Assembly (NCBI GenBank): GCA_034439575.1
Contig: JAWXAQ010000036.1
Span: 32,001 to 96,000, forward strand
Direction: 5' to 3'
Origin: Leptospira sp.
GTDB lineage: Bacteria; Spirochaetota; Leptospiria; Leptospirales; Leptospiraceae
DNA: 64,000 bases
Each line of letters opens with the position of its first letter. Within the stretch, counting starts at the first letter, position 1. This document shows, one piece after another, positions 16,242 through 26,743 of the stretch. The notes below the pieces were generated by a model. The model searched no databases, was not told where the DNA came from, and was given only the letters and a program-made list of their open reading frames with translations. Made by a program: the position numbers and the translations under genes.

Positions 16242-17048
16242 ATGAAAAAATATCTAATTTTATTATTAGTTCTAACAATTGTAAATTGTTCCAGTACACC
16301 AACGGCAAACTTGCCAGTAAAAAGCACAGTCGAAGGAAAAGCTTTAGAATATAAGCTTGATGGCAAAACTTACGAAGGTTATATGGCCGTAGATAAGTCA
16401 ATTAGCGGAAAGAGACCAGGCATTCTTGTCATACATGAATGGTGGGGACTCAATGAATATCCAAAACAAAGAGCAAGACAACTGGCTGATCTTGGTTATA
16501 CGGCATTTGTTATGGATGTCTATGGAAAAGGAATCATTGCGGCAGATCACAATGAAGCAGGCAAATTATCTGGTGCGAACAGCGATTCAAAGGTACTCCT
16601 AAAGAAAATTAGTGAAGCAATGAAAATTCTTAAAGCAGATCCAAGTGTGGATGCAAATCAAATTGGTGCTATAGGTTATTGTTTTGGGGGAATGGGTGTG
16701 ATAGAAATTGCACTTGATGGCCAAAATTTGAAAGGGGGGATTGTATCATTCCATGGTATGCTTGGTAGTAAAAATTTAAGCAGTGGAGCAAAAAAAGTAA
16801 AAACGAAAATGCTCGTTCATCATGGTGCTGATGATCCTTTTATCCCAAAAGATGCTGTCACTAACTTCGTAAAAACATTAGAAGAAGCGAAAGCACCTTT
16901 GAAATTTGTAGCTCACCCAGGTGCCGTACATGGTTTCACTCGACCTGGATCTGAAAAACATGGACTTCCTGGTTTATCGTATAACAAAGACGCAGATTAT
17001 GCATCCTTTGAAAGTATGAAATCATTTTTCGCTGAAAACTTTAAATAG
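16242..17048 (+). CDS. Dienelactone hydrolase-family lipoprotein
   Basis: AGGAG RBS and ATG 16242; lipobox IVNC; HEWWG, GYCFG, HGADD and HGFT motifs. Confidence 0.9.
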   Translation: MKKYLILLLVLTIVNCSSTPTANLPVKSTVEGKALEYKLDGKTYEGYMAVDKSISGKRPGILVIHEWWGLNEYPKQRARQLADLGYTAFVMDVYGKGIIAADHNEAGKLSGANSDSKVLLKKISEAMKILKADPSVDANQIGAIGYCFGGMGVIEIALDGQNLKGGIVSFHGMLGSKNLSSGAKKVKTKMLVHHGADDPFIPKDAVTNFVKTLEEAKAPLKFVAHPGAVHGFTRPGSEKHGLPGLSYNKDADYASFESMKSFFAENFK

Positions 17049-20000
17049 ACGATCGGCAAAATAAATAGTGTCAGAAAACTAGAAGTTACTAAGCCACCAA
17101 TAACAACCGTTGCCAGGGGCCTTTGCACTTCCGCCCCTGGTGATGTACTGATTGCCATAGGTATAAATCCTATCGAAGCTAACAATGCCGTTGTTAATAC
17201 TGGGCGCAGTCGAAGATTTGATGCTTCCAAAACAGCATCAAATGTATTCTTGCCACTAACTTCAAGTTGGCGAACGAATGTCACAAGTACAAGTCCGTTC
17301 AATACCGCTATCCCAAATAAGGCAATAAAGCCGATTCCAGCAGAAATGCTAAACGGCATTTGCCGTAAGCTAAGGGCAAAAATACCACCTGTAACTGCTA
17401 GGGGAACATTCAGAAAAATAATTAAAGATGGCTTCCATGATTGAAAGGCAAGATATAAAATAAAGAGGATGATCATTAGCGTAACGGGAACTACAAAAAT
17501 TAAAGTATTCACCGCCGATTGAAATTTTTGAAATTCGCCACCAAGCTCATAACGATAACCAGGTGGAAAAATAACTTTTTTATCAATGGCTTTTTTAACA
17601 TTTTTAACCGTACTCAGCATATCATTTCCACGGATATTAAATTGAACCAGAGCAATTCTATTTTGATCCTGATGATTAATTTGGACTGGTCCATCTTCAA
17701 TCCGGATGTCGGACAACTCACTTAAAGGTACATTTTGTCCATTTGATAAATTGATTGGCAAGTATTTAATATTTTCAATGATTCCATTTAGATCAGATTT
17801 TAAAACAATATCAAATCTCCGCATACCTTCATAAACGACACCTAACATATGACCAGAAGAAATGGTTTCTACAGCATCATTTACTACTTTGACCGATTGT
17901 CCATATCTTGCTAATTTATTTCTATTTGGTGTTATGCGAAGATACTCCAAACCAGAAAGTTGTTCAATACGTAAATCAGTAACTCCTTTTTCATTTCGTA
18001 TATTTTCAGAAATTGACTCGCCAATTTCTTTTAACTTTTGTAAGTCGTCTCCATAAATTTTGATTCCAACATCCGCGCGAATGCCCGCCATAATTTCATT
18101 GTTTCTCATTTCGATCGGTTGGGAAATGCCAAAGGAAACTTCTGGAACTTGTTCACTTAAAATATTGGAAATTTTTGTTTCCAATTCTTCTTTGCTTTGG
18201 CTCCACTCTTTTCTCGGTTTCAATTCAAGATAAACATCAGTTTTATCTATTCCCATTGGTTCTACCGCTAATTCAGGTGAACCTGTTCTAGATGTGATAC
18301 CTGTAATTTCAGAAATTTGATTTAACAAAAGTTTCTCAATTTTTAGGGATGTATCTATTGAATTCTGTAAAGAAGAAGAAGGAAGTCTTGTAATTTCAAT
18401 GAGTAAGTTTCCTTCATCCAATTTTGGCAAAAACTCACCGCCCATAAAAATAAACATAACAATTGAGCTGACAAAAATAAGAACAGTTGTGACCATTGCT
18501 ACTTTGCTATTAGAAATCATATAATTTAACTTAGGTGAATACCAGGTTAAAATTTTGTGAAAAAATAATGTCTCGTTATGCGAGTTAGCATCAGATTTTA
18601 ATAAATAAGAGGCAAGAACTGGAATAATTGTTAATGTAAGGAAAAAAGCACCGAGTAATGCAAATAACACGGTTGTTGCCATTGGAATAAACATTTTACC
18701 TTCTGTTCCGCCCAATACGAAAATTGGAATGTACACTATGCCGATGATGATTTCACCAAAGATAGTGGCCTTTCTAACTTCAATCGTAGCATTCAAAATG
18801 GTTTCTTGTTTTTCTGATTGTGTTAATTGGCGTCCAAATTCTTTTCCTTTTTCTAACAATCGCCGATGTGAGTTTTCTATTAAAATGACAGCACCATCTA
18901 CGATAAGACCAAAATCTATGGCGCCCATTGACATCAAGTTAGCTGGTAAATCTCTTAAATGCATCATTCCTAAGGCAAAAAGCATCGCCAATGGAATGAT
19001 ACTTGCAATTACTAGTCCTGAGCGAATATCTCCAATCATCACAAACAAAATAATGATAACAAGAATTGCGCCTTCTGATAAATTCCAAATTACTGTTTGA
19101 ATCGAATTGGAAACCATAATCGTACGATCATAGTAAGGAACTATCTTCAGACCAATGGGCAGTGTCTTTTGAATCGATAGGATTTTTTCTTTGACTGCCC
19201 CAGTAACTTCTAATGAATTTTGACCAATTAACATAAGTGTGACGGCACCTACGACTTCGCCTTTTCCATTTGCAGTTGCAGCACCCTTTCTAAGTTTGAA
19301 GCCTTCCTCAATTCTCGCAACGGATTTGATTTGAATAGGGAATCCATCTTTTGTTTGACTAATTTGAATTTTTTGAATGTCCTCTATATTTTTTATTAAG
19401 CCATCACTGCTTATGATCAATTGTTCTTTGTTTTTTTCTAAATACCCACTGCCTGTAGATGAATTATTTTTTACTATAGCTTCTGCTATATCAAGAAATG
19501 ATACACCTAACGAAGACATAGCTTGGTGATTTGCTAAAATTTGAAATTCCTTTGTTTTCCCACCAAAGGTATTCACTTCGACTATACCTGGAACAGTTTT
19601 TAACATTGGATTGATAAGCCAATTGAGGTAGGTAGTTTTTTGAATATGATCAAATTCATCTCCTTCCAATGTGAATTGAAATATTTCACCAAGACCAGTT
19701 GTGATCGGTGCAATTTGTGGCGTTCCAAAATTTTTTGGTATTAGGGAACTAACTTCTTGTAATTTTTCACTGATCAATTGTCTACAATTCAACAAATCTG
19801 ATCCATCTTCAAATACCGCTGTGATTAAGGAAAACCCATACCGTGAGACGGAACGCACTTCAATTAATTTGGGAGTTCCTGATATTGCTCTTTCGACAGG
19901 GTAGGTAATATATTGTTCAATCTCCAATGCAGATAATGATGGTGAGGTGGTGATGATTTGCACTTGGATATTTGTTATATCTGGAACTGCATCAATTTTA

Positions 20001-20107
20001 ATTTTTGTCGCACTATTTATCCCAAATAGTACCAATAAAAAAGTGAGAAAAAGTATGATTGGTCTATTGTTTAAGGACCATCTAACAAGATAAGTTAAGA
20101 TTTCCAT
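16997..20107 (-). CDS. czcA: Heavy-metal RND efflux permease (CzcA/CusA family, CzcA-type TM4)
   Basis: IDAVPDITN.QVQI, GAIDFGLIVDGAVILIEN, RLRPVLTTAL, GAEVQRPLATVVIGG. Confidence 0.93.
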   Translation of the reverse strand: MEILTYLVRWSLNNRPIILFLTFLLVLFGINSATKIKIDAVPDITNIQVQIITTSPSLSALEIEQYITYPVERAISGTPKLIEVRSVSRYGFSLITAVFEDGSDLLNCRQLISEKLQEVSSLIPKNFGTPQIAPITTGLGEIFQFTLEGDEFDHIQKTTYLNWLINPMLKTVPGIVEVNTFGGKTKEFQILANHQAMSSLGVSFLDIAEAIVKNNSSTGSGYLEKNKEQLIISSDGLIKNIEDIQKIQISQTKDGFPIQIKSVARIEEGFKLRKGAATANGKGEVVGAVTLMLIGQNSLEVTGAVKEKILSIQKTLPIGLKIVPYYDRTIMVSNSIQTVIWNLSEGAILVIIILFVMIGDIRSGLVIASIIPLAMLFALGMMHLRDLPANLMSMGAIDFGLIVDGAVILIENSHRRLLEKGKEFGRQLTQSEKQETILNATIEVRKATIFGEIIIGIVYIPIFVLGGTEGKMFIPMATTVLFALLGAFFLTLTIIPVLASYLLKSDANSHNETLFFHKILTWYSPKLNYMISNSKVAMVTTVLIFVSSIVMFIFMGGEFLPKLDEGNLLIEITRLPSSSLQNSIDTSLKIEKLLLNQISEITGITSRTGSPELAVEPMGIDKTDVYLELKPRKEWSQSKEELETKISNILSEQVPEVSFGISQPIEMRNNEIMAGIRADVGIKIYGDDLQKLKEIGESISENIRNEKGVTDLRIEQLSGLEYLRITPNRNKLARYGQSVKVVNDAVETISSGHMLGVVYEGMRRFDIVLKSDLNGIIENIKYLPINLSNGQNVPLSELSDIRIEDGPVQINHQDQNRIALVQFNIRGNDMLSTVKNVKKAIDKKVIFPPGYRYELGGEFQKFQSAVNTLIFVVPVTLMIILFILYLAFQSWKPSLIIFLNVPLAVTGGIFALSLRQMPFSISAGIGFIALFGIAVLNGLVLVTFVRQLEVSGKNTFDAVLEASNLRLRPVLTTALLASIGFIPMAISTSPGAEVQRPLATVVIGGLVTSSFLTLFILPIVYLKFSAKNDFILSKDA

Positions 20108-21255
20108 TATTCTTCACCAAACGTAGATTTGAATAAGATTGATTTTAATTCAAAACCACCAGAAATTACCAATTCATCATTTGCGTTAAGTCCAGAAGAT
20201 ATTTCTGTTTCGTCATCGATCACATTACCGATTTGCACTTGTGTCCATTTAAAAGTTTGTGAACCAACTTTGATAAAAACATAATTTTGATTTTTGAGTG
20301 TAAACAGAGAAGTAGTTGGAATTTTGATTCCTTGTTTTCCTGATTTTTCTATAAATGCCTTTCCGAAGAGGCCTATTTTTCCTTTGTTATTTTGATTTTT
20401 AAAAACGATTCTTGCATGAATCGTCCTCGAAATCGGATCAACTTTTTCTCCGATATGTTCTAAGGTTCCTGAAAATTCATCATCAGGATAAGCATTCAAT
20501 ATAACTTTTGCTATATCTCCTTCCGAAAGGAACTTTAAATCTCCTTCGAAAATTTTGCCTTGAAACCATAAATGACTTAGATCAGCTATAGTTGTTAAAG
20601 TCTGGTTGCCCAAAACTTGTGAACCCAAAACAGCATTTCTAAATATAGCCTTTCCTGACCGTGGTGCTATTACTTGGTAAGTTCCGGACATGGAATCTGA
20701 CAGGCCTAGTCCGTTGACTCGTAAATTTTCTTCTGAAGCATTTTTTTCTGATATTAAAACTTTCAAGTTCGATTCGGAATCGATAAGCTCTTGTTTTGCG
20801 GCCAGATTCATTTGGACTAAGGATCGTATTCTCTCTACATTTTGTTGTGCAGCAAAAAGTTTTGATTTGGCCGTTATATAATTGGAACGAAGTTTTGCCA
20901 ATTCGGGTGAGTCGATAACCACAAGGACCTTTCCTTTTTTTATGAAGTCACCTTCCACAAAATTGACTTGAGTGATACGACCAGATAATCTTGCTGGAAC
21001 GTCTAAGATTGAATCAGGAACTGCTTCCGTTTCACCTAATAACTGTATTTTTCTACCGAAGTTTGTCAGTTCGATTGGTTTGGTTTTTATTAATAAATTT
21101 TTTGTAGTATTTTCAGAGAGTTCAAGAATATTTTGATTTTGAATTTCTGCTTTGTCTAAATTTATATTATCTGTTTTTGATTTAGAATTTAAATAAAAAT
21201 ATGCAGTTAGAGATAAAAGCAGGATAACGATTGTTATAACTATTTTGTTTTTCAT
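20107..21255 (-). CDS. czcB: RND periplasmic adaptor (CzcB-like)
   Basis: Lipoyl half-motifs (GRITQV..VEGD.IKKG, IAPRSG) and helical hairpin; sits between the OMF and RND genes. Confidence 0.9.
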   Translation of the reverse strand: MKNKIVITIVILLLSLTAYFYLNSKSKTDNINLDKAEIQNQNILELSENTTKNLLIKTKPIELTNFGRKIQLLGETEAVPDSILDVPARLSGRITQVNFVEGDFIKKGKVLVVIDSPELAKLRSNYITAKSKLFAAQQNVERIRSLVQMNLAAKQELIDSESNLKVLISEKNASEENLRVNGLGLSDSMSGTYQVIAPRSGKAIFRNAVLGSQVLGNQTLTTIADLSHLWFQGKIFEGDLKFLSEGDIAKVILNAYPDDEFSGTLEHIGEKVDPISRTIHARIVFKNQNNKGKIGLFGKAFIEKSGKQGIKIPTTSLFTLKNQNYVFIKVGSQTFKWTQVQIGNVIDDETEISSGLNANDELVISGGFELKSILFKSTFGEE

Positions 21256-22589
21256 GGTAACTCTGTTATGATGATTTTTTCATTCGGAAGTCCGAGAGCA
21301 CGAATGAGTTCAATTTGTGCTAATTCGTATTCCGTTTTTGTTTGTAGATAATTGATCCGCGTTTGAACGAGAATTCTTTGGTTATTGATGGCATCTAAAA
21401 CTTTTATTTTCCCACTTTGTAAGGCTTCTGTTATATGATTCAAATCAGATAAACTTCGATTCAGCATAACTTCATCATACATCTCAAATTCTTCTTTAGA
21501 ATTTAGGTAATTCGAAATTGCATTGATAACATCTTGTTTGACAGATCTTTCTGTAAGCGCTCTAAATTCTATTGATTGATCTTCTTTGGCTTTAGAAATC
21601 ATAGTCTCTCCTTCATAATTGCGCCATAAAGTTAAAGGAAAACTAATTTGGCCCCCGATCACTCGTTCATTAAATCCATCGTTTTGTACAAAGGCACCCA
21701 AACTTGGATTAGGTATTTTTTGTAATCTTACTTCTTGTGATCGTAATACAGCTATTTTAATTTCTTTTTCCACAACTTTAAGCTCTGGTCGATTTTGAAT
21801 GGCGATAGAAATTAAATTTTCTTTATCTTGCGGTACGGATATAACTAGCTGAAATTTTGGTTTCCATTTCCATTCTTCATCGGTTGATACATTTAGAAGT
21901 AATTGCAATTCACCTTTCGCTTGTTCCATTCTTCTTACTGACTGCTTCCAAATTTTTGCCATTCTAAGTTCTTCCGATTCAGAAAGGCTTTCATCTATTC
22001 CGGGTGTTATACCTTCACGAACGCGAGCCTTTGAAAGTTTTGTTAAATTCTTAGACAAATTGTATAAGTCAGAAGTTACATAGACTTCATTCTGTAGATT
22101 TAGGTATCGGAAAAGCGATGCCATCGATAAAAAATAAATATTTCGACTAATCGTATTTAAACGCAATACCTGAGTTTGAAATTCTTCATCAGCAATTTGA
22201 ATTGATTTTTCGCGTTTTCCTGCGACAAAAATTTCTTGCGAAACCATTATTTGGAAATTGGTTGCATGATTTGTTTCAGGAAAAAATCCTAATTGGCTCC
22301 CTTGCTGATTTCTATTTGAAAGATAAGTCGAAATATTGGGATTGTTTGGAAAATAATACTCTGCTATTTTTTTCCGACCGAGCATTTCGTTTAATCGAAG
22401 TAATTCGATTTGGTAACTAGGATGCTGATTTATGGCACACGAAGATACTCTTTCTAAATTCCATGGAGGTTTACAGTTAACCCTCTCTTCAGAAATAAGT
22501 ATGCTAGGAAAAGATAATAAAAGACAAAATATAAAAGTATATATAGCGCGCATAATGCGATGCGCAAAATACCTTTGGGTAAAATACAT
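21252..22589 (-). CDS. czcC: TolC-family outer-membrane efflux protein (CzcC-like)
   Basis: AIQNRPEL, QKIPN.SLG, SFPLTLWRN; GGAGG RBS at 22594-22598. Confidence 0.85.
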   Translation of the reverse strand: MYFTQRYFAHRIMRAIYTFIFCLLLSFPSILISEERVNCKPPWNLERVSSCAINQHPSYQIELLRLNEMLGRKKIAEYYFPNNPNISTYLSNRNQQGSQLGFFPETNHATNFQIMVSQEIFVAGKREKSIQIADEEFQTQVLRLNTISRNIYFLSMASLFRYLNLQNEVYVTSDLYNLSKNLTKLSKARVREGITPGIDESLSESEELRMAKIWKQSVRRMEQAKGELQLLLNVSTDEEWKWKPKFQLVISVPQDKENLISIAIQNRPELKVVEKEIKIAVLRSQEVRLQKIPNPSLGAFVQNDGFNERVIGGQISFPLTLWRNYEGETMISKAKEDQSIEFRALTERSVKQDVINAISNYLNSKEEFEMYDEVMLNRSLSDLNHITEALQSGKIKVLDAINNQRILVQTRINYLQTKTEYELAQIELIRALGLPNEKIIITELP

Positions 22590-22591
22590 AA

Positions 22592-22649
22592 GACCTCCAT
22601 GAAAATAAATTACTAAATTTTCTTTAAGTAATGTTTTCGCGTGGAGGTC
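22592..22649 (-). promoter_or_regulatory. mRNA hairpin sequestering the czcC Shine-Dalgarno
   Basis: In the mRNA, GACCUCCA (RPP codons) pairs with UGGAGGUC (SD), GAAAA with UUUUC, and AUUACU with AGUAAU. Confidence 0.7.
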
Positions 22650-23004
22650 GGAAGTATCCTTCAGTTGTAGAATATTCCAAAAATACGAGTGTCGGGAAGG
22701 AAAGGTATATTTTGTTTAAACTAATCAATACAGGATATAAATTTAAATCCCAAGAAACGACTAGTTGCAAATTGCAAGGGCAAGAAAGACAAACATGATC
22801 TTTATGATCACCTTCTTCTTCTATGTCATGACTTGTTTCTATTCCCAAAGAATGATCTAAAAATGAATATTGGCAGGTGCTTTCAACAGAACCTAACACC
22901 CCACAAATAGCTTCATTATCGACAATTTTTTGTGCGGTGAAATTAAGGCAAAAAATGATTACAAAAACAATTTTAAATAGTCTGTATAGTGTAATCTTTC
23001 CCAT
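22624..23004 (-). CDS. Small His/Cys-rich leader protein (CzcI/DUF2946-like) with C-terminal RPP
   Basis: Hydrophobic N-terminus, SHDIEEEGDHKDHVCLSCPC, ends GYFRPPRENIT; 34 nt upstream of czcC. Confidence 0.75.
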   Translation of the reverse strand: MGKITLYRLFKIVFVIIFCLNFTAQKIVDNEAICGVLGSVESTCQYSFLDHSLGIETSHDIEEEGDHKDHVCLSCPCNLQLVVSWDLNLYPVLISLNKIYLSFPTLVFLEYSTTEGYFRPPRENIT

Positions 23005-23185
23005 CTTTGATTTTAGAATCTCTTACTTTAATATGACGTAAATTTCTAATCTAATACAATAGCTATAGAATCATTTGGTTAAAAATTTGTCTGTTTAAAA
23101 ATATATAGGGATGATTCCTTAAAATGCGATTCATTTAATAACAAACCTTCTTGCCTAAGAATTAGTTTTTAAAGAATTTGTTACT

Positions 23186-25138
23186 ATGCCGCAAACATTT
23201 CCTATTTGGAAACCTACCTCAAAATCACAAAATATAACTGAATTTCAAAATCATTTAGCGCAAATATACGGTTTAACGTTCAATTCGTATTCAGAATTTC
23301 ATAAATGGTCTGTTTCTCATTTGGAAAAATTTTGGTCTGCTTGGGCAAAAAGTTCAAAATTTATTTTTCGAAGAGAAGGGACAGAAACTGTTAGGTTTGG
23401 AAAAAATTTTTGGGAAACAGAATGGTTTCCTGGTTCGGAAATTAATTTTGCAGAAAATTTATTGGAAAAAGGTGAACCGAATCATATCGCCTTACATTTC
23501 TTACGTGAAGATGGTCAAAAGATTGAATTAACATATAGAGACTTAAAAACTAAAGTTACAAACCTAGCAAATTATTTTGTTTCTATTGGAATCAATAAGG
23601 GTGATAGAATTTGTGGATTAGTCCCAAATTCTCCGATTTCCACAATAGGCATGTTAGCCGCTACTTCACTTGGAGCTATATGGTCGAGTGCTTCTCCTGA
23701 TTTTGGAGTGAAAGGTGTTCTTGATCGTTTTGAACAAATTTCCCCTAAGGTTTTATTGACAGTTGATTCCTATTTATTTAAAGGTAAAAAGATTTCAATC
23801 CTAGAGAAAGTGATTGAAGTATCAAATCGGTTAGGTGACTCGAATCCAGAATATAAAGCAACACTTATCAGCTCTTTTTTAGGAGACTCGTTTTCTTTAG
23901 ATTCGATACGATATCCGATACGTTATGAGGAAATACTCGAATCAAAGAGTCCTCTGATTTACACTCCAATTACATTCCAAGATCCAGTGTACATAATGTT
24001 TTCATCGGGGACGACTGGACTTCCGAAATGTATCGTCCAAGGAGCTGGCGTTTTATTAAACCAAACGAAAGAATTGGCATTGCATTGTAATTTAACAAAG
24101 AATGATAAATTGTTTTATTACACTACTTGCGGATGGATGATGTGGAATTGGTCACAGGCTACCTTAGCTCTCGGTGCTACACTGTATCAATTTGATGGCA
24201 ATCCATTTTATCCCAACTGGCAGACGTTATGGGACTGGTCAAATAAAGAAAATATTAATATTTTTGGAACAAGTGCCAAATACTTATCAGTTTTGGAATC
24301 CGAAAAAGCAGAGCCTATCAACCATTTTAATTTGGAGTCTCTAAAAATCATTCTATCAACGGGTAGTCCTTTGTTTCCTTCTGGATTTCGTTATGTATAC
24401 TCAAATATAAAAAAAGATGTCCAATTATCATCTATTTCCGGGGGAACCGACTTGAATGGTTGTTTTGCGCTCGGATATCCCGAATTGCCTGTGTTCGAAG
24501 GTGAATTGCAATGCATTGGTCTCGGGATGGACGTGAAAGTATTTAGTGAAGATGGATTGGCCATAGAACAAGAAAAAGGTGAACTAGTTTGTTTGAAACC
24601 TTTCCCGAGTATGCCACTATATTTTTGGAATGATCCAGATAGGAAAAAATATAAATCGGCATACTTTGACCGATTTGAAAATATCTGGTGTCATGGAGAC
24701 TTTGCTGAAATCACAACTAATGGCGGTATGGTGATTCATGGCCGATCAGATGCCACTTTAAATCCTGGTGGAGTAAGAATTGGCACTGCAGATATTTATT
24801 CTGTAGTTGAGACTTTTGCAGAAATAGCGGATTCAGTCATTATTGGTCAAGAATGGAAAGATGATGTGAGGGTGATTTTGTTTTTAAAAATGGCTCCAAA
24901 TCATATGTTAGATGATGAATTGAAAAGTAAAGTTAAGGATAAAATCAAAAATCAAACTTCCCCTAGACATGTTCCTAGTTTGGTTTTGGAAGTGAAAGAC
25001 ATTCCATACACAGTGAATGGCAAAAAAGTAGAAATAGCAGTCAAACAAACTGTGCTCGGTCAAGTCGTCAAAAATCAAAATGCTTTAGCAAATCCGGAAG
25101 CATTGGTATACTTTGCAAATAGAAAAGAATTACTATGA
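23186..25138 (+). CDS. Acetoacetate-CoA ligase
   Basis: YIMFSSGTTGLPKCIV, YYTTCGWMMWNW, SISGGTD, GRSDATLNPGGVRIGTA, GKKVEIAVK. Confidence 0.93.
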   Translation: MPQTFPIWKPTSKSQNITEFQNHLAQIYGLTFNSYSEFHKWSVSHLEKFWSAWAKSSKFIFRREGTETVRFGKNFWETEWFPGSEINFAENLLEKGEPNHIALHFLREDGQKIELTYRDLKTKVTNLANYFVSIGINKGDRICGLVPNSPISTIGMLAATSLGAIWSSASPDFGVKGVLDRFEQISPKVLLTVDSYLFKGKKISILEKVIEVSNRLGDSNPEYKATLISSFLGDSFSLDSIRYPIRYEEILESKSPLIYTPITFQDPVYIMFSSGTTGLPKCIVQGAGVLLNQTKELALHCNLTKNDKLFYYTTCGWMMWNWSQATLALGATLYQFDGNPFYPNWQTLWDWSNKENINIFGTSAKYLSVLESEKAEPINHFNLESLKIILSTGSPLFPSGFRYVYSNIKKDVQLSSISGGTDLNGCFALGYPELPVFEGELQCIGLGMDVKVFSEDGLAIEQEKGELVCLKPFPSMPLYFWNDPDRKKYKSAYFDRFENIWCHGDFAEITTNGGMVIHGRSDATLNPGGVRIGTADIYSVVETFAEIADSVIIGQEWKDDVRVILFLKMAPNHMLDDELKSKVKDKIKNQTSPRHVPSLVLEVKDIPYTVNGKKVEIAVKQTVLGQVVKNQNALANPEALVYFANRKELL

Positions 25139-25198: not shown

Positions 25199-26743
25199 TT
25201 ACTTGATTTTCGAAAATTCAAAAATAGTAAGTTTCTTTCCCTCAATGGTCTTTTCTAGTTTATTATATTTATTTAAAACTTTCAATATGGAATTATAATG
25301 TTCTTCTGGCGGGAAGAGCCCAATTTTTATCGCCTGTTCCACCATAGGTGTCATTTTAATTTTACTAAAAATCAAATTTTTAGGAATCAATATTTTTGAA
25401 TGATTTTTTGCCAAAAATGAATCTAGCTGTTCTGCATTTCTAGGTAACATTGAGGGCACAGACAAATAATATCCCCCAGAATATAGAACGATAGATTCAC
25501 ATCCCGCCATATGCAAACTAACATCCATTTGATTTAAATCATCTTGGAATTGGCGAATGTCTTTTGTCGCAAGACTTTGTGCCTTAAAACCTATCACTAA
25601 AATTAATATGGAAAAAAATAAACCAAAATAAGTGAAGCGCATTGGCCATTTATTTTTTGCCTGCAAAATATGGATTATATAAGTATCAAATAAAAAGAGA
25701 CAAGGCAAAATACCCAAATTCAAATAACGAGCACCCCAATTCGTGACACCATCGTTAGGTGCAATTATTGCAATGAAAGGTAAAAAGAATAGCAATGTAT
25801 AGGCGAGGATTCTATATTTATTTTCAGACTTAAGATTTTTTCTAAATAAATTCCAGACGAGTGCTACGAGAAAGATCGGTGTAAAACCGAAAAATCCAAT
25901 TTTCCAATTTGCTAAAAAGAGAAGGTGGATCACTTGATCCAATCTTTCTGCAAATACAAAATTGTTTAAACTACCTTGGTTGATCACAAAGCGAGCCCCG
26001 AGAGGGTGATGGTATAATAAATAATTTTCAGAAAAGAAACAAATTAAAGGAAGTAAGACGCCGAGAAGTGAATAGAAATACTCCTTCAAAAATTTTATGA
26101 GATTCATTTTGTATTCTAGTATTAGGATGATAAAATAAAAACCTCCAACAAAAACTAATGTTTCCAACCGAAGGAATATCCCAATGGTTAGAAAAAAAGC
26201 GGAGAAAAATAAATTAATTTTATTTTTTTCTTTGAAGAAAAAAAACAATCCCAATGCCTGAAACAATAGTAACATTGAATTTTCAGAATATTCTAAACCT
26301 TGAAATAAGAGAGGAGTTCCAAGGCTCGCGAGTATTAGAGTTAAAAAATGAAGTTGTTTCGTTATATAAAATATGAAATAAGAAACAAAAGCAAAAATCA
26401 GACAAATGTATGGTAAAAATTTCCAAGAAATAAATTTTAATAATACCGCGTTAAAATAAGCGAAGTTAAAGGGAAAGGGAGATATGATTTTGTTTTCCAC
26501 TTTCAGAACATATAAAGGAATCGGATACATTTCCATTGAAGTATCTATCTCTTTTGAGCTATAAAATAATTCCTCAGACATGTATGAGTTTTTTTGAATG
26601 GAAACGGTTTGGACTAATTTGACAAAACTATCTAGAGCATAAGTGGATTCGGGTTTAAGTTTATAAAGGTGAATGAAAAAGATTGCGACTAATATAACGC
26701 TAAGGGAAAAAATTCGAACTTTAGGATTTGAAAAATAATTCAT
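25199..26743 (-). CDS. Polytopic membrane protein, putative GT-C glycosyltransferase (LA_3751/LA_3752-like)
   Basis: Many TM helices, D..VK..Q, LRLET, HPLG.R, PNDG..WG.RY motifs; very AT-rich. Confidence 0.65.
   Translation of the reverse strand: MNYFSNPKVRIFSLSVILVAIFFIHLYKLKPESTYALDSFVKLVQTVSIQKNSYMSEELFYSSKEIDTSMEMYPIPLYVLKVENKIISPFPFNFAYFNAVLLKFISWKFLPYICLIFAFVSYFIFYITKQLHFLTLILASLGTPLLFQGLEYSENSMLLLFQALGLFFFFKEKNKINLFFSAFFLTIGIFLRLETLVFVGGFYFIILILEYKMNLIKFLKEYFYSLLGVLLPLICFFSENYLLYHHPLGARFVINQGSLNNFVFAERLDQVIHLLFLANWKIGFFGFTPIFLVALVWNLFRKNLKSENKYRILAYTLLFFLPFIAIIAPNDGVTNWGARYLNLGILPCLFLFDTYIIHILQAKNKWPMRFTYFGLFFSILILVIGFKAQSLATKDIRQFQDDLNQMDVSLHMAGCESIVLYSGGYYLSVPSMLPRNAEQLDSFLAKNHSKILIPKNLIFSKIKMTPMVEQAIKIGLFPPEEHYNSILKVLNKYNKLEKTIEGKKLTIFEFSKIK

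Follow-up and report, generated by a model that had tools for sequence, protein, structure and literature searches.

A conserved small gene at the head of a heavy-metal efflux operon

The DNA analyzed here, a 64,000-nucleotide (nt) window of a Leptospira sp. contig (GenBank assembly GCA_034439575.1, contig JAWXAQ010000036.1, positions 32,001 to 96,000; the genome is denoted G000 below), carries on its minus strand a small upstream open reading frame (uORF), P0001, directly followed by genes for the outer-membrane factor (czcC-like), the membrane-fusion protein (MFP) and the transporter of a resistance-nodulation-division (RND) efflux pump (Table 1). For this gene, annotated as a "hypothetical protein" by NCBI, we propose a function: it might encode a CutF-like, cis-acting leader that senses metal and export and unmasks translation of czcC, an interpretation that we consider evenly balanced between being right and being wrong. 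The evidence comes from an invariant protein layout that ends in an Arg-Pro-Pro (R-P-P) motif a few codons before the stop, and from an RNA hairpin in which the last codons of the leader pair with czcC's Shine-Dalgarno (SD) sequence.

The first-pass annotation of this DNA, made from the letters alone, had described a 126-amino-acid (aa) ORF upstream of czcC that contains the SHDIEEEGDHKDHVCLSCPC stretch and ends in FRPPRENIT, and P0001 agrees with this description. Homologues with 45-60% identity occur in 33 of 36 congeneric genomes and in none of 24 genomes of the sister family. A profile built from diverse members retrieves the gene in 61 of 114 Leptospiraceae genomes, representing eight of 14 GTDB genera; by genus, the hits cover 37 of 40 genomes in the genus of the window and seven of eight in g27, with none among the 22 genomes of g25 or the five of g17. 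When a profile was run against 1.84 billion representative proteins, just 14 matches at E <= 0.001 were recovered, and all leader loci that lie in named genome records (n = 24) belong to Leptospira, Leptospiraceae or Spirochaetota metagenome-assembled genomes, the nearest being L. idonii and L. ognonensis. Moreover, in each of the 71 leader loci collected, a czcC-like OEP gene with an SD-bearing start lies directly downstream on the same strand. Judged by this sequence evidence, the leader ORF is a real gene. One genome of the genus with 8% contamination (G008) carries, on a single contig, two leader copies with equal scores in opposite orientation (C1:133876-134232 and 285195-285551). Among public sequencing runs, no RNA run is listed as containing the locus, and four metagenomic runs from one study contain just 0.05-0.12 of the sampled words.

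With respect to the start codon, several NCBI records give the orthologues as 104-aa proteins that begin at an internal Met and lack the hydrophobic N-terminus, and other records give 131 aa. Because the internal Met is not conserved (T/A/G-x-Q occupies this position in G000 and in other clades) and the upstream hydrophobic segment is, the long form is likely to represent the correct start.

The downstream genes encode the metal pump that had been claimed for this locus, with OEP, MFP and CusA/CzcA-family RND components, an identification that assigns the class of the pump and not its metal. The MFP scores above the cut-off of the RND_mfp model and at 131 bits, below cut-off, with the CzcB/NccB model. 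The fourth transmembrane segment (TM4) of the RND protein includes the stretch AIDFGLIVDGAVILIEN and fits the pattern DFG..DGA..EN, which we take to be the signature reported for divalent-cation pumps of the heavy-metal efflux (HME) RND class; because of this fit, the label czcCBA appears reasonable. The statement that no metal-responsive transcription factor lies beside the operon also holds for the six flanking ORFs scanned with Pfam, in which no transcription-factor domain was found. One of these, a 514-aa ORF at 25199-26743 (-), matches no Pfam family at E <= 0.01.

Table 1. Coordinates, within the window, of the leader gene, its junction with czcC and the pump genes
Feature	Coordinates	Strand	Evidence
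Leader gene (uORF), small Cys/His-rich protein, 126 aa, P0001	22624..23004	-	ORF and homologues
Positively charged n-region and hydrophobic helix, residues 1-28, predicted signal peptide or signal anchor	22921..23004	-	AlphaFold2, hydropathy, charge
Putative metal-binding region, residues 29-78, DNE..CG..G..E..C ... H.C..CPCN	22771..22920	-	Invariant residues
Linker ("ruler"), residues 79-117, variable in sequence, invariant in length	22654..22770	-	Alignment, 0 gaps
Candidate ribosome-pausing motif F-R-P-P-R, residues 118-122	22639..22653	-	R-P-P in 53/53 unique proteins
Tail codons E-N-I-T and stop, 5' arm of the upper stem	22624..22638	-	Sequence, fold
SD-sequestering hairpin, anti-SD GACCUCCA at 22642-22649, SD arm UGGAGGUC at 22592-22599	22592..22649	-	Fold
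czcC SD GGAGG (22594-22598) and ATG (22587-22589)	22587..22598	-	Sequence
Outer-membrane factor gene, czcC-like, OEP PF02321	21252..22589	-	Pfam
Membrane-fusion protein gene, CzcB/CusB-like	20107..21255	-	HlyD_D23, 1.9e-34
Heavy-metal RND pump gene, CusA/CzcA family	16997..20107	-	TIGR00914, 1056 bits (cut-off 701)

Anatomy of the leader protein

The 71 loci yield 53 unique proteins and 50 unique leader-czcC junctions, across which the protein is built from regions of sharply different conservation. A 12-residue window with a mean Kyte-Doolittle value of at least 1.6 is found in 45 of 46 unique N-termini, and the n-region carries a net positive charge in 44 of them; furthermore, AlphaFold2 (AF2), run on a 26-sequence alignment, predicts a helix at residues 2-34 with a predicted local distance difference test (pLDDT) score of 80-94. 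By hydropathy, charge and predicted helix, the N-terminus thus appears signal-like, as in CutF-like leaders. Past this helix, AF2 predicts nothing with confidence (pLDDT 42-69 overall, below 50 at residues 81-102).

The region that follows (residues 29-78) has a mean pairwise identity of 0.56 and contains ten residues that are invariant among 26 diverse sequences, namely D29, C34, G35, G38, E41, C44, H70, C72, C75 and P76; C77 and N78 are retained in 90% or more of these sequences. This is the kind of Cys motif that characterizes CutF-like leaders, and on the strength of the pattern we regard the region as a putative metal-binding sensor. The linker (residues 79-117) behaves in the opposite way: its mean pairwise identity is 0.24, and that between the genus and distant members 0.16, with no gap in any of 1014 alignment cells, and the offset between the last residue of CxxCPC and the first Pro of the terminal motif is 43 in all 53 unique proteins.

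The R-P-P motif itself occurs in all 53, two to seven codons before the stop, with an identity of 0.79 for the motif region. The residue before it is F in 41 proteins, I in nine and N in three, and the residue after it is K in 29, R in 23 and E in one; in one metagenomic relative, KPP takes its place. Given that all six codons are used for the Arg and four for each Pro, R-P-P is kept as a peptide and not as RNA. We therefore treat it as a candidate pausing motif, comparable in position and Pro content to the stalling motifs of CutF-like leaders. The tail after the two prolines is five residues long in 42 of the 53 proteins (range 2-7), with a peptide identity of 0.15.

An SD-sequestering hairpin at the leader-czcC junction

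In the genome of the window, the pairing between the R-P-P codons and the czcC SD that the first-pass annotation had noticed is present as described. The codons CGA CCT CCA (22650-22642) contain GACCUCCA (22649-22642), which pairs with UGGAGGUC (22599-22592), and the latter includes the SD GGAGG (22598-22594), located 4 nt before the czcC ATG (22589-22587). The stem is continued across the stop codon by GAAAA/UUUUC and AUUACU/AGUAAU. The spacer between the leader stop and the czcC start measures 34 nt.

The fold is far more stable than expected by chance. A 91-nt segment has a minimum free energy (MFE) of -24.4 kcal/mol (z -4.47), equaled by one of 200 dinucleotide shuffles, and the 73-nt element reaches -20.5 kcal/mol against a shuffle mean of -7.7 (z -5.08), equaled by none of 200. 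Moreover, the sequestration is exceptional within the genome. The opening energy, defined as the ensemble cost of leaving the 5-nt SD unpaired in a window from -82 to +18, was computed for 1115 ORFs of G000 with at least 200 codons, a chosen start giving at least about 180 aa and an SD-like word 4-14 nt upstream. The czcC SD, at 15.34 kcal/mol, ranks first of the 1115 (median 2.75, 99th percentile 10.3). As a bare duplex, the window from R-P-P to the stop is the top partner of the SD segment among 37 leader windows, and just three of 100 czcC windows pair with this segment equally well. The hairpin in this genome is not a chance fold.

Sequestration of the czcC SD among relatives

Across the family, masking of the SD recurs, and the exact pairing of R-P-P codons with the SD is facultative and not conserved: in many species it is the tail codons that supply the anti-SD. 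Opening the SD costs more than 6.15 kcal/mol, the 90th percentile of the G000 background, in 25 of 30 orthologues from the same genus. Among 18 representative loci, the z-score of the element is negative in all and below -2 in eight (L001 -5.08, L043 -5.18, L047 -3.42, L049 -2.93, L009 -2.85, L005 -2.63, L002 -2.43, L012 -2.08), and the MFE structure pairs the SD core with leader codons in 14, using the R-P-P codons in L001, L009, L026, L027, L047 and L049 and the tail codons in L002, L004, L005, L012, L021, L029, L043 and L044. In other genera, the tail carries an anti-SD of unrelated sequence, such as ...CUCCUAUUUAG... in L061 (opening energy 11.84 kcal/mol), GAUAUAUCCU in L064 (8.51), ACCUCCU in L066 (8.45) and CCUCUC in L060 (8.64). 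The stem that shields the downstream SD, a feature of one subtype of CutF-like leaders, is accordingly strong in G000 and variable across the family.

Co-variation between the two arms is detectable. When terminal windows and SD segments were exchanged among the 50 unique junctions, the cognate duplexes had a mean of -10.69 kcal/mol, compared with a permutation mean of -9.88 (standard deviation 0.26, p 0.0017); among 22 representatives chosen by clade, the values were -11.82 and -9.58 (standard deviation 0.43), and none of 20000 permutations reached the cognate value. This comparison captures pairing beyond the shared SD core, and relatedness and base composition could inflate it. For 20 closely related sequences, RNAalifold returns nine consensus pairs, comprising tail ACCU:AGGU and the spacer hairpin CGCAA:UUGCG; at one pair, three of the 20 show a compensatory change from CG to UA. 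The small hairpin after the stop recurs in relatives with differing sequences, and taken alone it is significant (no more than 5% of mononucleotide shuffles reaching its stability) in just 11 of 36 loci.

Relationship to CutF, CruR, CzcI and arrest peptides

The layout that defines CutF-like leaders, according to the excerpted text of PMC9973294 and bioRxiv 10.1101/2025.02.05.636593, consists of a signal-like N-terminus, a Cys/His motif, a Pro motif near the stop and a stem that masks the SD of the next gene. In CutF of Rhodobacter capsulatus (cutFOG), as these excerpts describe it, Cu on the exported nascent chain keeps the ribosome at a C-terminal PPP against elongation factor P (EF-P), with C45 in a 90-aa mature protein and PPP in the last 10 residues. 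The Leptospira leader shares with CutF the small size, the apparent export signal, Cys-based candidate metal motifs, a Pro motif shortly before the stop codon and, between leader and next gene, a stem-loop that masks the SD of the latter; moreover, the metal motif and the Pro motif are about 36-45 residues apart in CutF and 43 in the leader, and both precede detoxification or export functions, so that metal should induce. The two differ in that the leader has R-P-P-[KR] instead of PPP and H.C..CPC plus two upstream Cys instead of CxxxC, its anti-SD lies within its own last codons, and its target would be an OEP-MFP-RND pump and not a multicopper oxidase. Furthermore, the leader has no Pfam DUF2946 match, is restricted to Leptospiraceae and is known here from sequence. 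The excerpts of PMC9973294 also name OEP genes of RND systems as the commonest downstream neighbors of CutF-like proteins and include a few Spirochaetota entries.

CruR (Bp2923) of Bordetella pertussis is likewise a uORF with a Cys motif at the head of a metal-homeostasis operon, with Arg-...-Pro-Pro near its C-terminus, and arrest at this motif controls its downstream genes (PMC9426467, PMC12992588, in the portions available); arrest at RAPP is reported in vitro (excerpts of PMC12992588). However, CruR combines RAPP with Rho-dependent termination and a 162-nt spacer, in contrast to the 34-nt spacer and masked SD of the leader. Copper relieves the CruR arrest and turns an importer off, whereas an exporter follows the leader, and the signal sequence of CruR is described as dispensable in the available parts of PMC9426467 and PMC12992588. 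CzcI of Cupriavidus metallidurans pMOL30 resembles the leader in its position directly upstream of czcC, its small size and its signal-like N-terminus, has a His-rich stretch and a C..C motif, and has been suggested to be a metal-sensing regulator (PMC9973294, excerpted). Unlike the leader, CzcI lacks a C-terminal diproline motif, as its sequence and the excerpts of PMC9973294 indicate, and the two have no detectable similarity: hhalign of the family profile (A2) against pMOL30 CzcI gives a probability of 0.5%, and the kinship with CzcI that had been raised for the ORF thus finds no support there. Finally, SecM and RAPP/RGPP arrest peptides such as ApdA and ApdP are small proteins that are exported and carry an Arg/Pro core shortly before the stop codon; in them, arrest exposes the next SD and release depends on force on the nascent chain (PMC12992588, excerpted). 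They differ from the leader, whose candidate core RPP has no small residue between R and PP, and they precede Sec/YidC components where the leader precedes metal efflux genes.

Database tests yield a mixed picture of family membership. P0001 matches nothing in Pfam and NCBIfam. At least six orthologues (L. kemamanensis, L. soteropolitanensis, L. fletcheri, L. fluminis, L. bourretii and L. idonii) bear the UniRef label "DUF2946 domain-containing protein", and the precomputed Pfam field is "-" for all 18 UniRef matches. As a loose control, pMOL30 CzcI scores 15.7 bits against PF11162, below cut-off, and pMOL30 overall has only sub-threshold matches. In the ESM Atlas, the feature neighbors at 0.96 include CzcI and DUF6660 clusters, and the structural comparisons with DUF2946 clusters give template modeling (TM) scores of 0.28-0.38, below the bar. 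The RAPP-like core R-[A/G/S/P]-P-P or RAGP, as given in the RxPP list in the excerpts of PMC12992588, is absent from the family, whose core is [FIN]-R-P-P-[KRE]. In a Pfam scan of 30 members at E <= 10, FYVE_CARP1-2 was hit in four with a best E of 0.036, which is at chance level. The safest description of the leader, on present sequence comparisons, is that of a branch of the CutF-like proteins that is very divergent and confined to Leptospiraceae, or of an analogue of these proteins with the same traits.

A proposed mechanism and its alternatives

We envisage that the N-terminal signal or anchor would bring the nascent chain to the Sec translocon, so that the Cys/His region could arrive on the periplasmic side before synthesis of the C-terminus is complete. 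In free mRNA, the last nine or so leader codons (R-P-P here, the tail codons in many relatives) would pair with the ribosome-binding site of czcC, the small hairpin after the stop would help to keep these codons and the SD together, and czcC and, by coupling, czcB and czcA would be poorly translated. A ribosome on the R-P-P codons, five codons before the stop, would cover or unwind the anti-SD and free the SD. The length of the pause would be set by the diprolyl pause, which EF-P (encoded in this genome) opposes, and by the state of the exported sensor 43 residues behind, with bound metal (Zn/Cd/Co or Cu) prolonging the pause and switching the efflux pump on. Given that the target is an exporter, the CutF logic, in which metal prolongs the pause and turns the pump on, would be the sensible direction of the response.

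The geometry is compatible with this scheme. The ribosome shields about 12-15 nt downstream of the first base in the P site; with Pro120 in the P site, it would therefore cover the R-P-P codons and reach the tail codons, so that either version of the anti-SD should be disrupted. With the usual five-residue tail, the stop codon and the hairpin in the spacer would lie just beyond the edge of the ribosome. The 43-residue distance would place CxxCPC just past the exit tunnel, near or in the translocon, with the upstream Cys/His residues already outside.

Several observations weigh against this scheme. As to the protein, RPP[KR] is absent from the strong arrest motifs listed as tested in the excerpts of PMC12992588 and bioRxiv 10.1101/2025.02.05.636593 (RAPP, RGPP, RAGP, PPP), and EF-P might clear a plain diprolyl pause. 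Pfam DUF2946 (PF11162.13) matches none of 30 aligned members or four further orthologues at E <= 10, and six-frame searches of G000 with DUF2946 and DUF6660 found nothing; the affiliation with DUF2946 suggested by the first-pass annotation finds no support in these models. As to the RNA, the first Pro codon is CCT, needed for CCUCC, in 24 of 53 sequences, compared with a genomic CCT share of 0.35. The element z-score lies above -2 in 10 of the 18 representative loci, no pairing of the SD with the ORF is seen in L024, L025 and L052 and only weak pairing in L003, and the full 30-sequence MAFFT alignment, in which the divergent spacers fail to align, gives no consensus pairs with RNAalifold. The terminal window is strictly the best anti-SD among the uORF windows in 11 of 30 loci and is no better than the average window in about six. 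When the last 15 codons were recoded synonymously (60 draws per locus), the recoded sequences already had mean opening energies of 2-9 kcal/mol; the natural value exceeds the mean of this null in 26 of 30 loci, and in just five of 30 is it reached by 5% of draws or fewer. Much of the SD masking is thus brought by the amino-acid sequence itself. One clade, with leaders ending in LIRPPR..., has the leader-czcC spacer enlarged to 127-276 nt. These spacers (L045, L046, L048, L050, L051, L054, L071, L072) hold structured repeat-like insertions, with long perfect inverted repeats in L051 and L054; the R-P-P prolines are encoded by CCU-CCU in all eight, and in the MFE structures CCUCC joins the SD in L045, L046, L050, L051, L071 and L072 and not in L048 and L054. 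The CutF/CruR-type reading of the first-pass annotation therefore survives in part: the layout recurs family-wide with R-P-P selected as protein, and neither conservation of the R-P-P-codon/SD pairing nor a match to the Pfam DUF2946 model is borne out.

The chief alternative is simple translational coupling, in which the ORF would specify a stable accessory protein, namely a small pump subunit or chaperone that resides in the membrane or periplasm and binds metal (cf. CzcI, CusF, AcrZ), the hairpin would merely couple czcC to the gene upstream, and R-P-P and the fixed spacing would be structural, with no metal-tuned pause; we consider this rather unlikely, if far from negligible. It would account for the conservation of the whole protein and not just its end, including the invariant residues of the Cys/His region, for the invariable company of gene and pump operon and for the weak excess over the recoding null, and the CzcI cluster among the ESM Atlas feature neighbors (score 0.96, 137 shared features) is a lead in the same direction. 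As inferred from the fold, termination at the leader stop would be enough to open the stem; since a ribosome that merely reaches the stop has this effect, the RNA data require no pausing and do not separate the CutF-like reading from such coupling. Against this rival stands the absence of a confident AF2 fold past the N-terminal helix, and a 39-residue linker with free sequence and unchanging length fits a spacer better than a folded core. R-P-P stands, in every member, at the distance from the stop typical of arrest leaders (PMC12992588, in the excerpted text), the tail peptide is not conserved while the tail codons retain complementarity to the SD, and the hhalign result separates the family from CzcI. 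CutF, for comparison, is a protein that is rapidly degraded.

It also has to be considered that the pairing is a by-product without a regulatory role, given that CCN CCN and C-rich tail codons resemble an anti-SD and that AT-rich mRNA would fold a G-rich SD onto any nearby C-rich stretch, with control residing elsewhere, for example in a distal two-component system. The energies of the recoded sequences, the closeness of the CCT usage to the genomic share and the finding that 167 of 1161 uORF windows (14%) and 379 of 3000 czcC windows (13%) are partners of the SD segment no worse than the terminal window are all in line with this view. We nevertheless deem it improbable, given the first rank of the czcC SD in its genome, the 25 of 30 orthologues above the background 90th percentile, the significant difference between cognate and swapped duplexes, the restoration of pairing by unrelated tails in different genera, the recurrence of the post-stop hairpin with differing sequences (individually significant in 11 loci) and the compensatory pair. 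Even less probable, in our view, is that the hairpin serves as a transcription attenuator or an mRNA-stability element, that is, as a terminator, a Rho-related signal or an RNase barrier. CruR works via Rho-dependent termination (PMC9426467, excerpted), and the sequence after the 3' arm in this genome is rich in U; however, the 3' arm is the SD itself, with the start codon 4 nt further on and no room for a U-tract, the terminator scan calls no terminator-like site at the leader-czcC junction, an Rfam scan of 22300-23300 gives no match at E <= 1, and the spacer measures 34 nt, compared with 162 nt in cruR-bfrG (PMC9973294, excerpted).

Returning to the CutF-like leader, we further hypothesize, with somewhat less than even confidence, that the family is a Leptospiraceae-specific branch of metal-sensing leaders missed by the DUF2946 model, in which a bare R-P-P pause and a 43-residue ruler would convert the periplasmic load of divalent metal into translation of a CzcCBA-type pump, with the anti-SD free to migrate between pause codons and tail codons.

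Implications and further observations

Among the papers listed by a full-text literature search, none concerns such a leader in Leptospira, in keeping with the earlier remark that no switch of this kind is known from a spirochaete; the DUF2946 names in UniRef and the few Spirochaetota entries among CutF-like proteins (PMC9973294, excerpted) weaken the remark. New here are an R-P-P-[KR] core, a ruler of exactly 43 residues, an anti-SD whose place shifts between pause and tail codons, the phylum and an HME-RND pump as the probable target. If the proposal is correct, a heavy-metal RND pump would for the first time be shown to be under nascent-chain control, spirochaetes would have their first switch of this kind, and free-living and intermediate Leptospira relatives would control the pump by reading periplasmic metal through a nascent chain, without an adjacent transcription factor. 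The principle of CutF and CruR would thereby reach beyond copper enzymes and importers to include an HME-RND exporter, and it would also take in a new phylum and a simpler Pro motif. Furthermore, a linker of invariant length and free sequence, combined with a moving anti-SD, constitutes a natural experiment through which the geometry of force- or ligand-sensitive pausing could become testable.

Upstream of the leader, the gene arrangement differs among relatives. In G000, the leader start adjoins a 181-nt divergent intergenic region beside an acetoacetate-CoA ligase gene, and on the minus strand the promoter scan called no promoter-like site ahead of the leader. In the main clade of the genus (L006-L023, L025, L027, L029), another conserved gene on the same strand ends at most about 10 nt before the leader start, running through ...SHVSP.CVPEI.DKLLQ... 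in a different frame.

A second candidate leader of the arrest type was noticed in the same genome, outside the window, at C33 ~127050-127385 (+) (L056:551-886). It is a 111-aa ORF without a Pfam match that has a hydrophobic N-terminal segment and ends in ...LTNRGPPHRT, with RGPP four residues before the stop, and it lies 35 nt before the gene for a 576-aa Proton_antipo_M protein, which is followed by an NADHdh-family gene.

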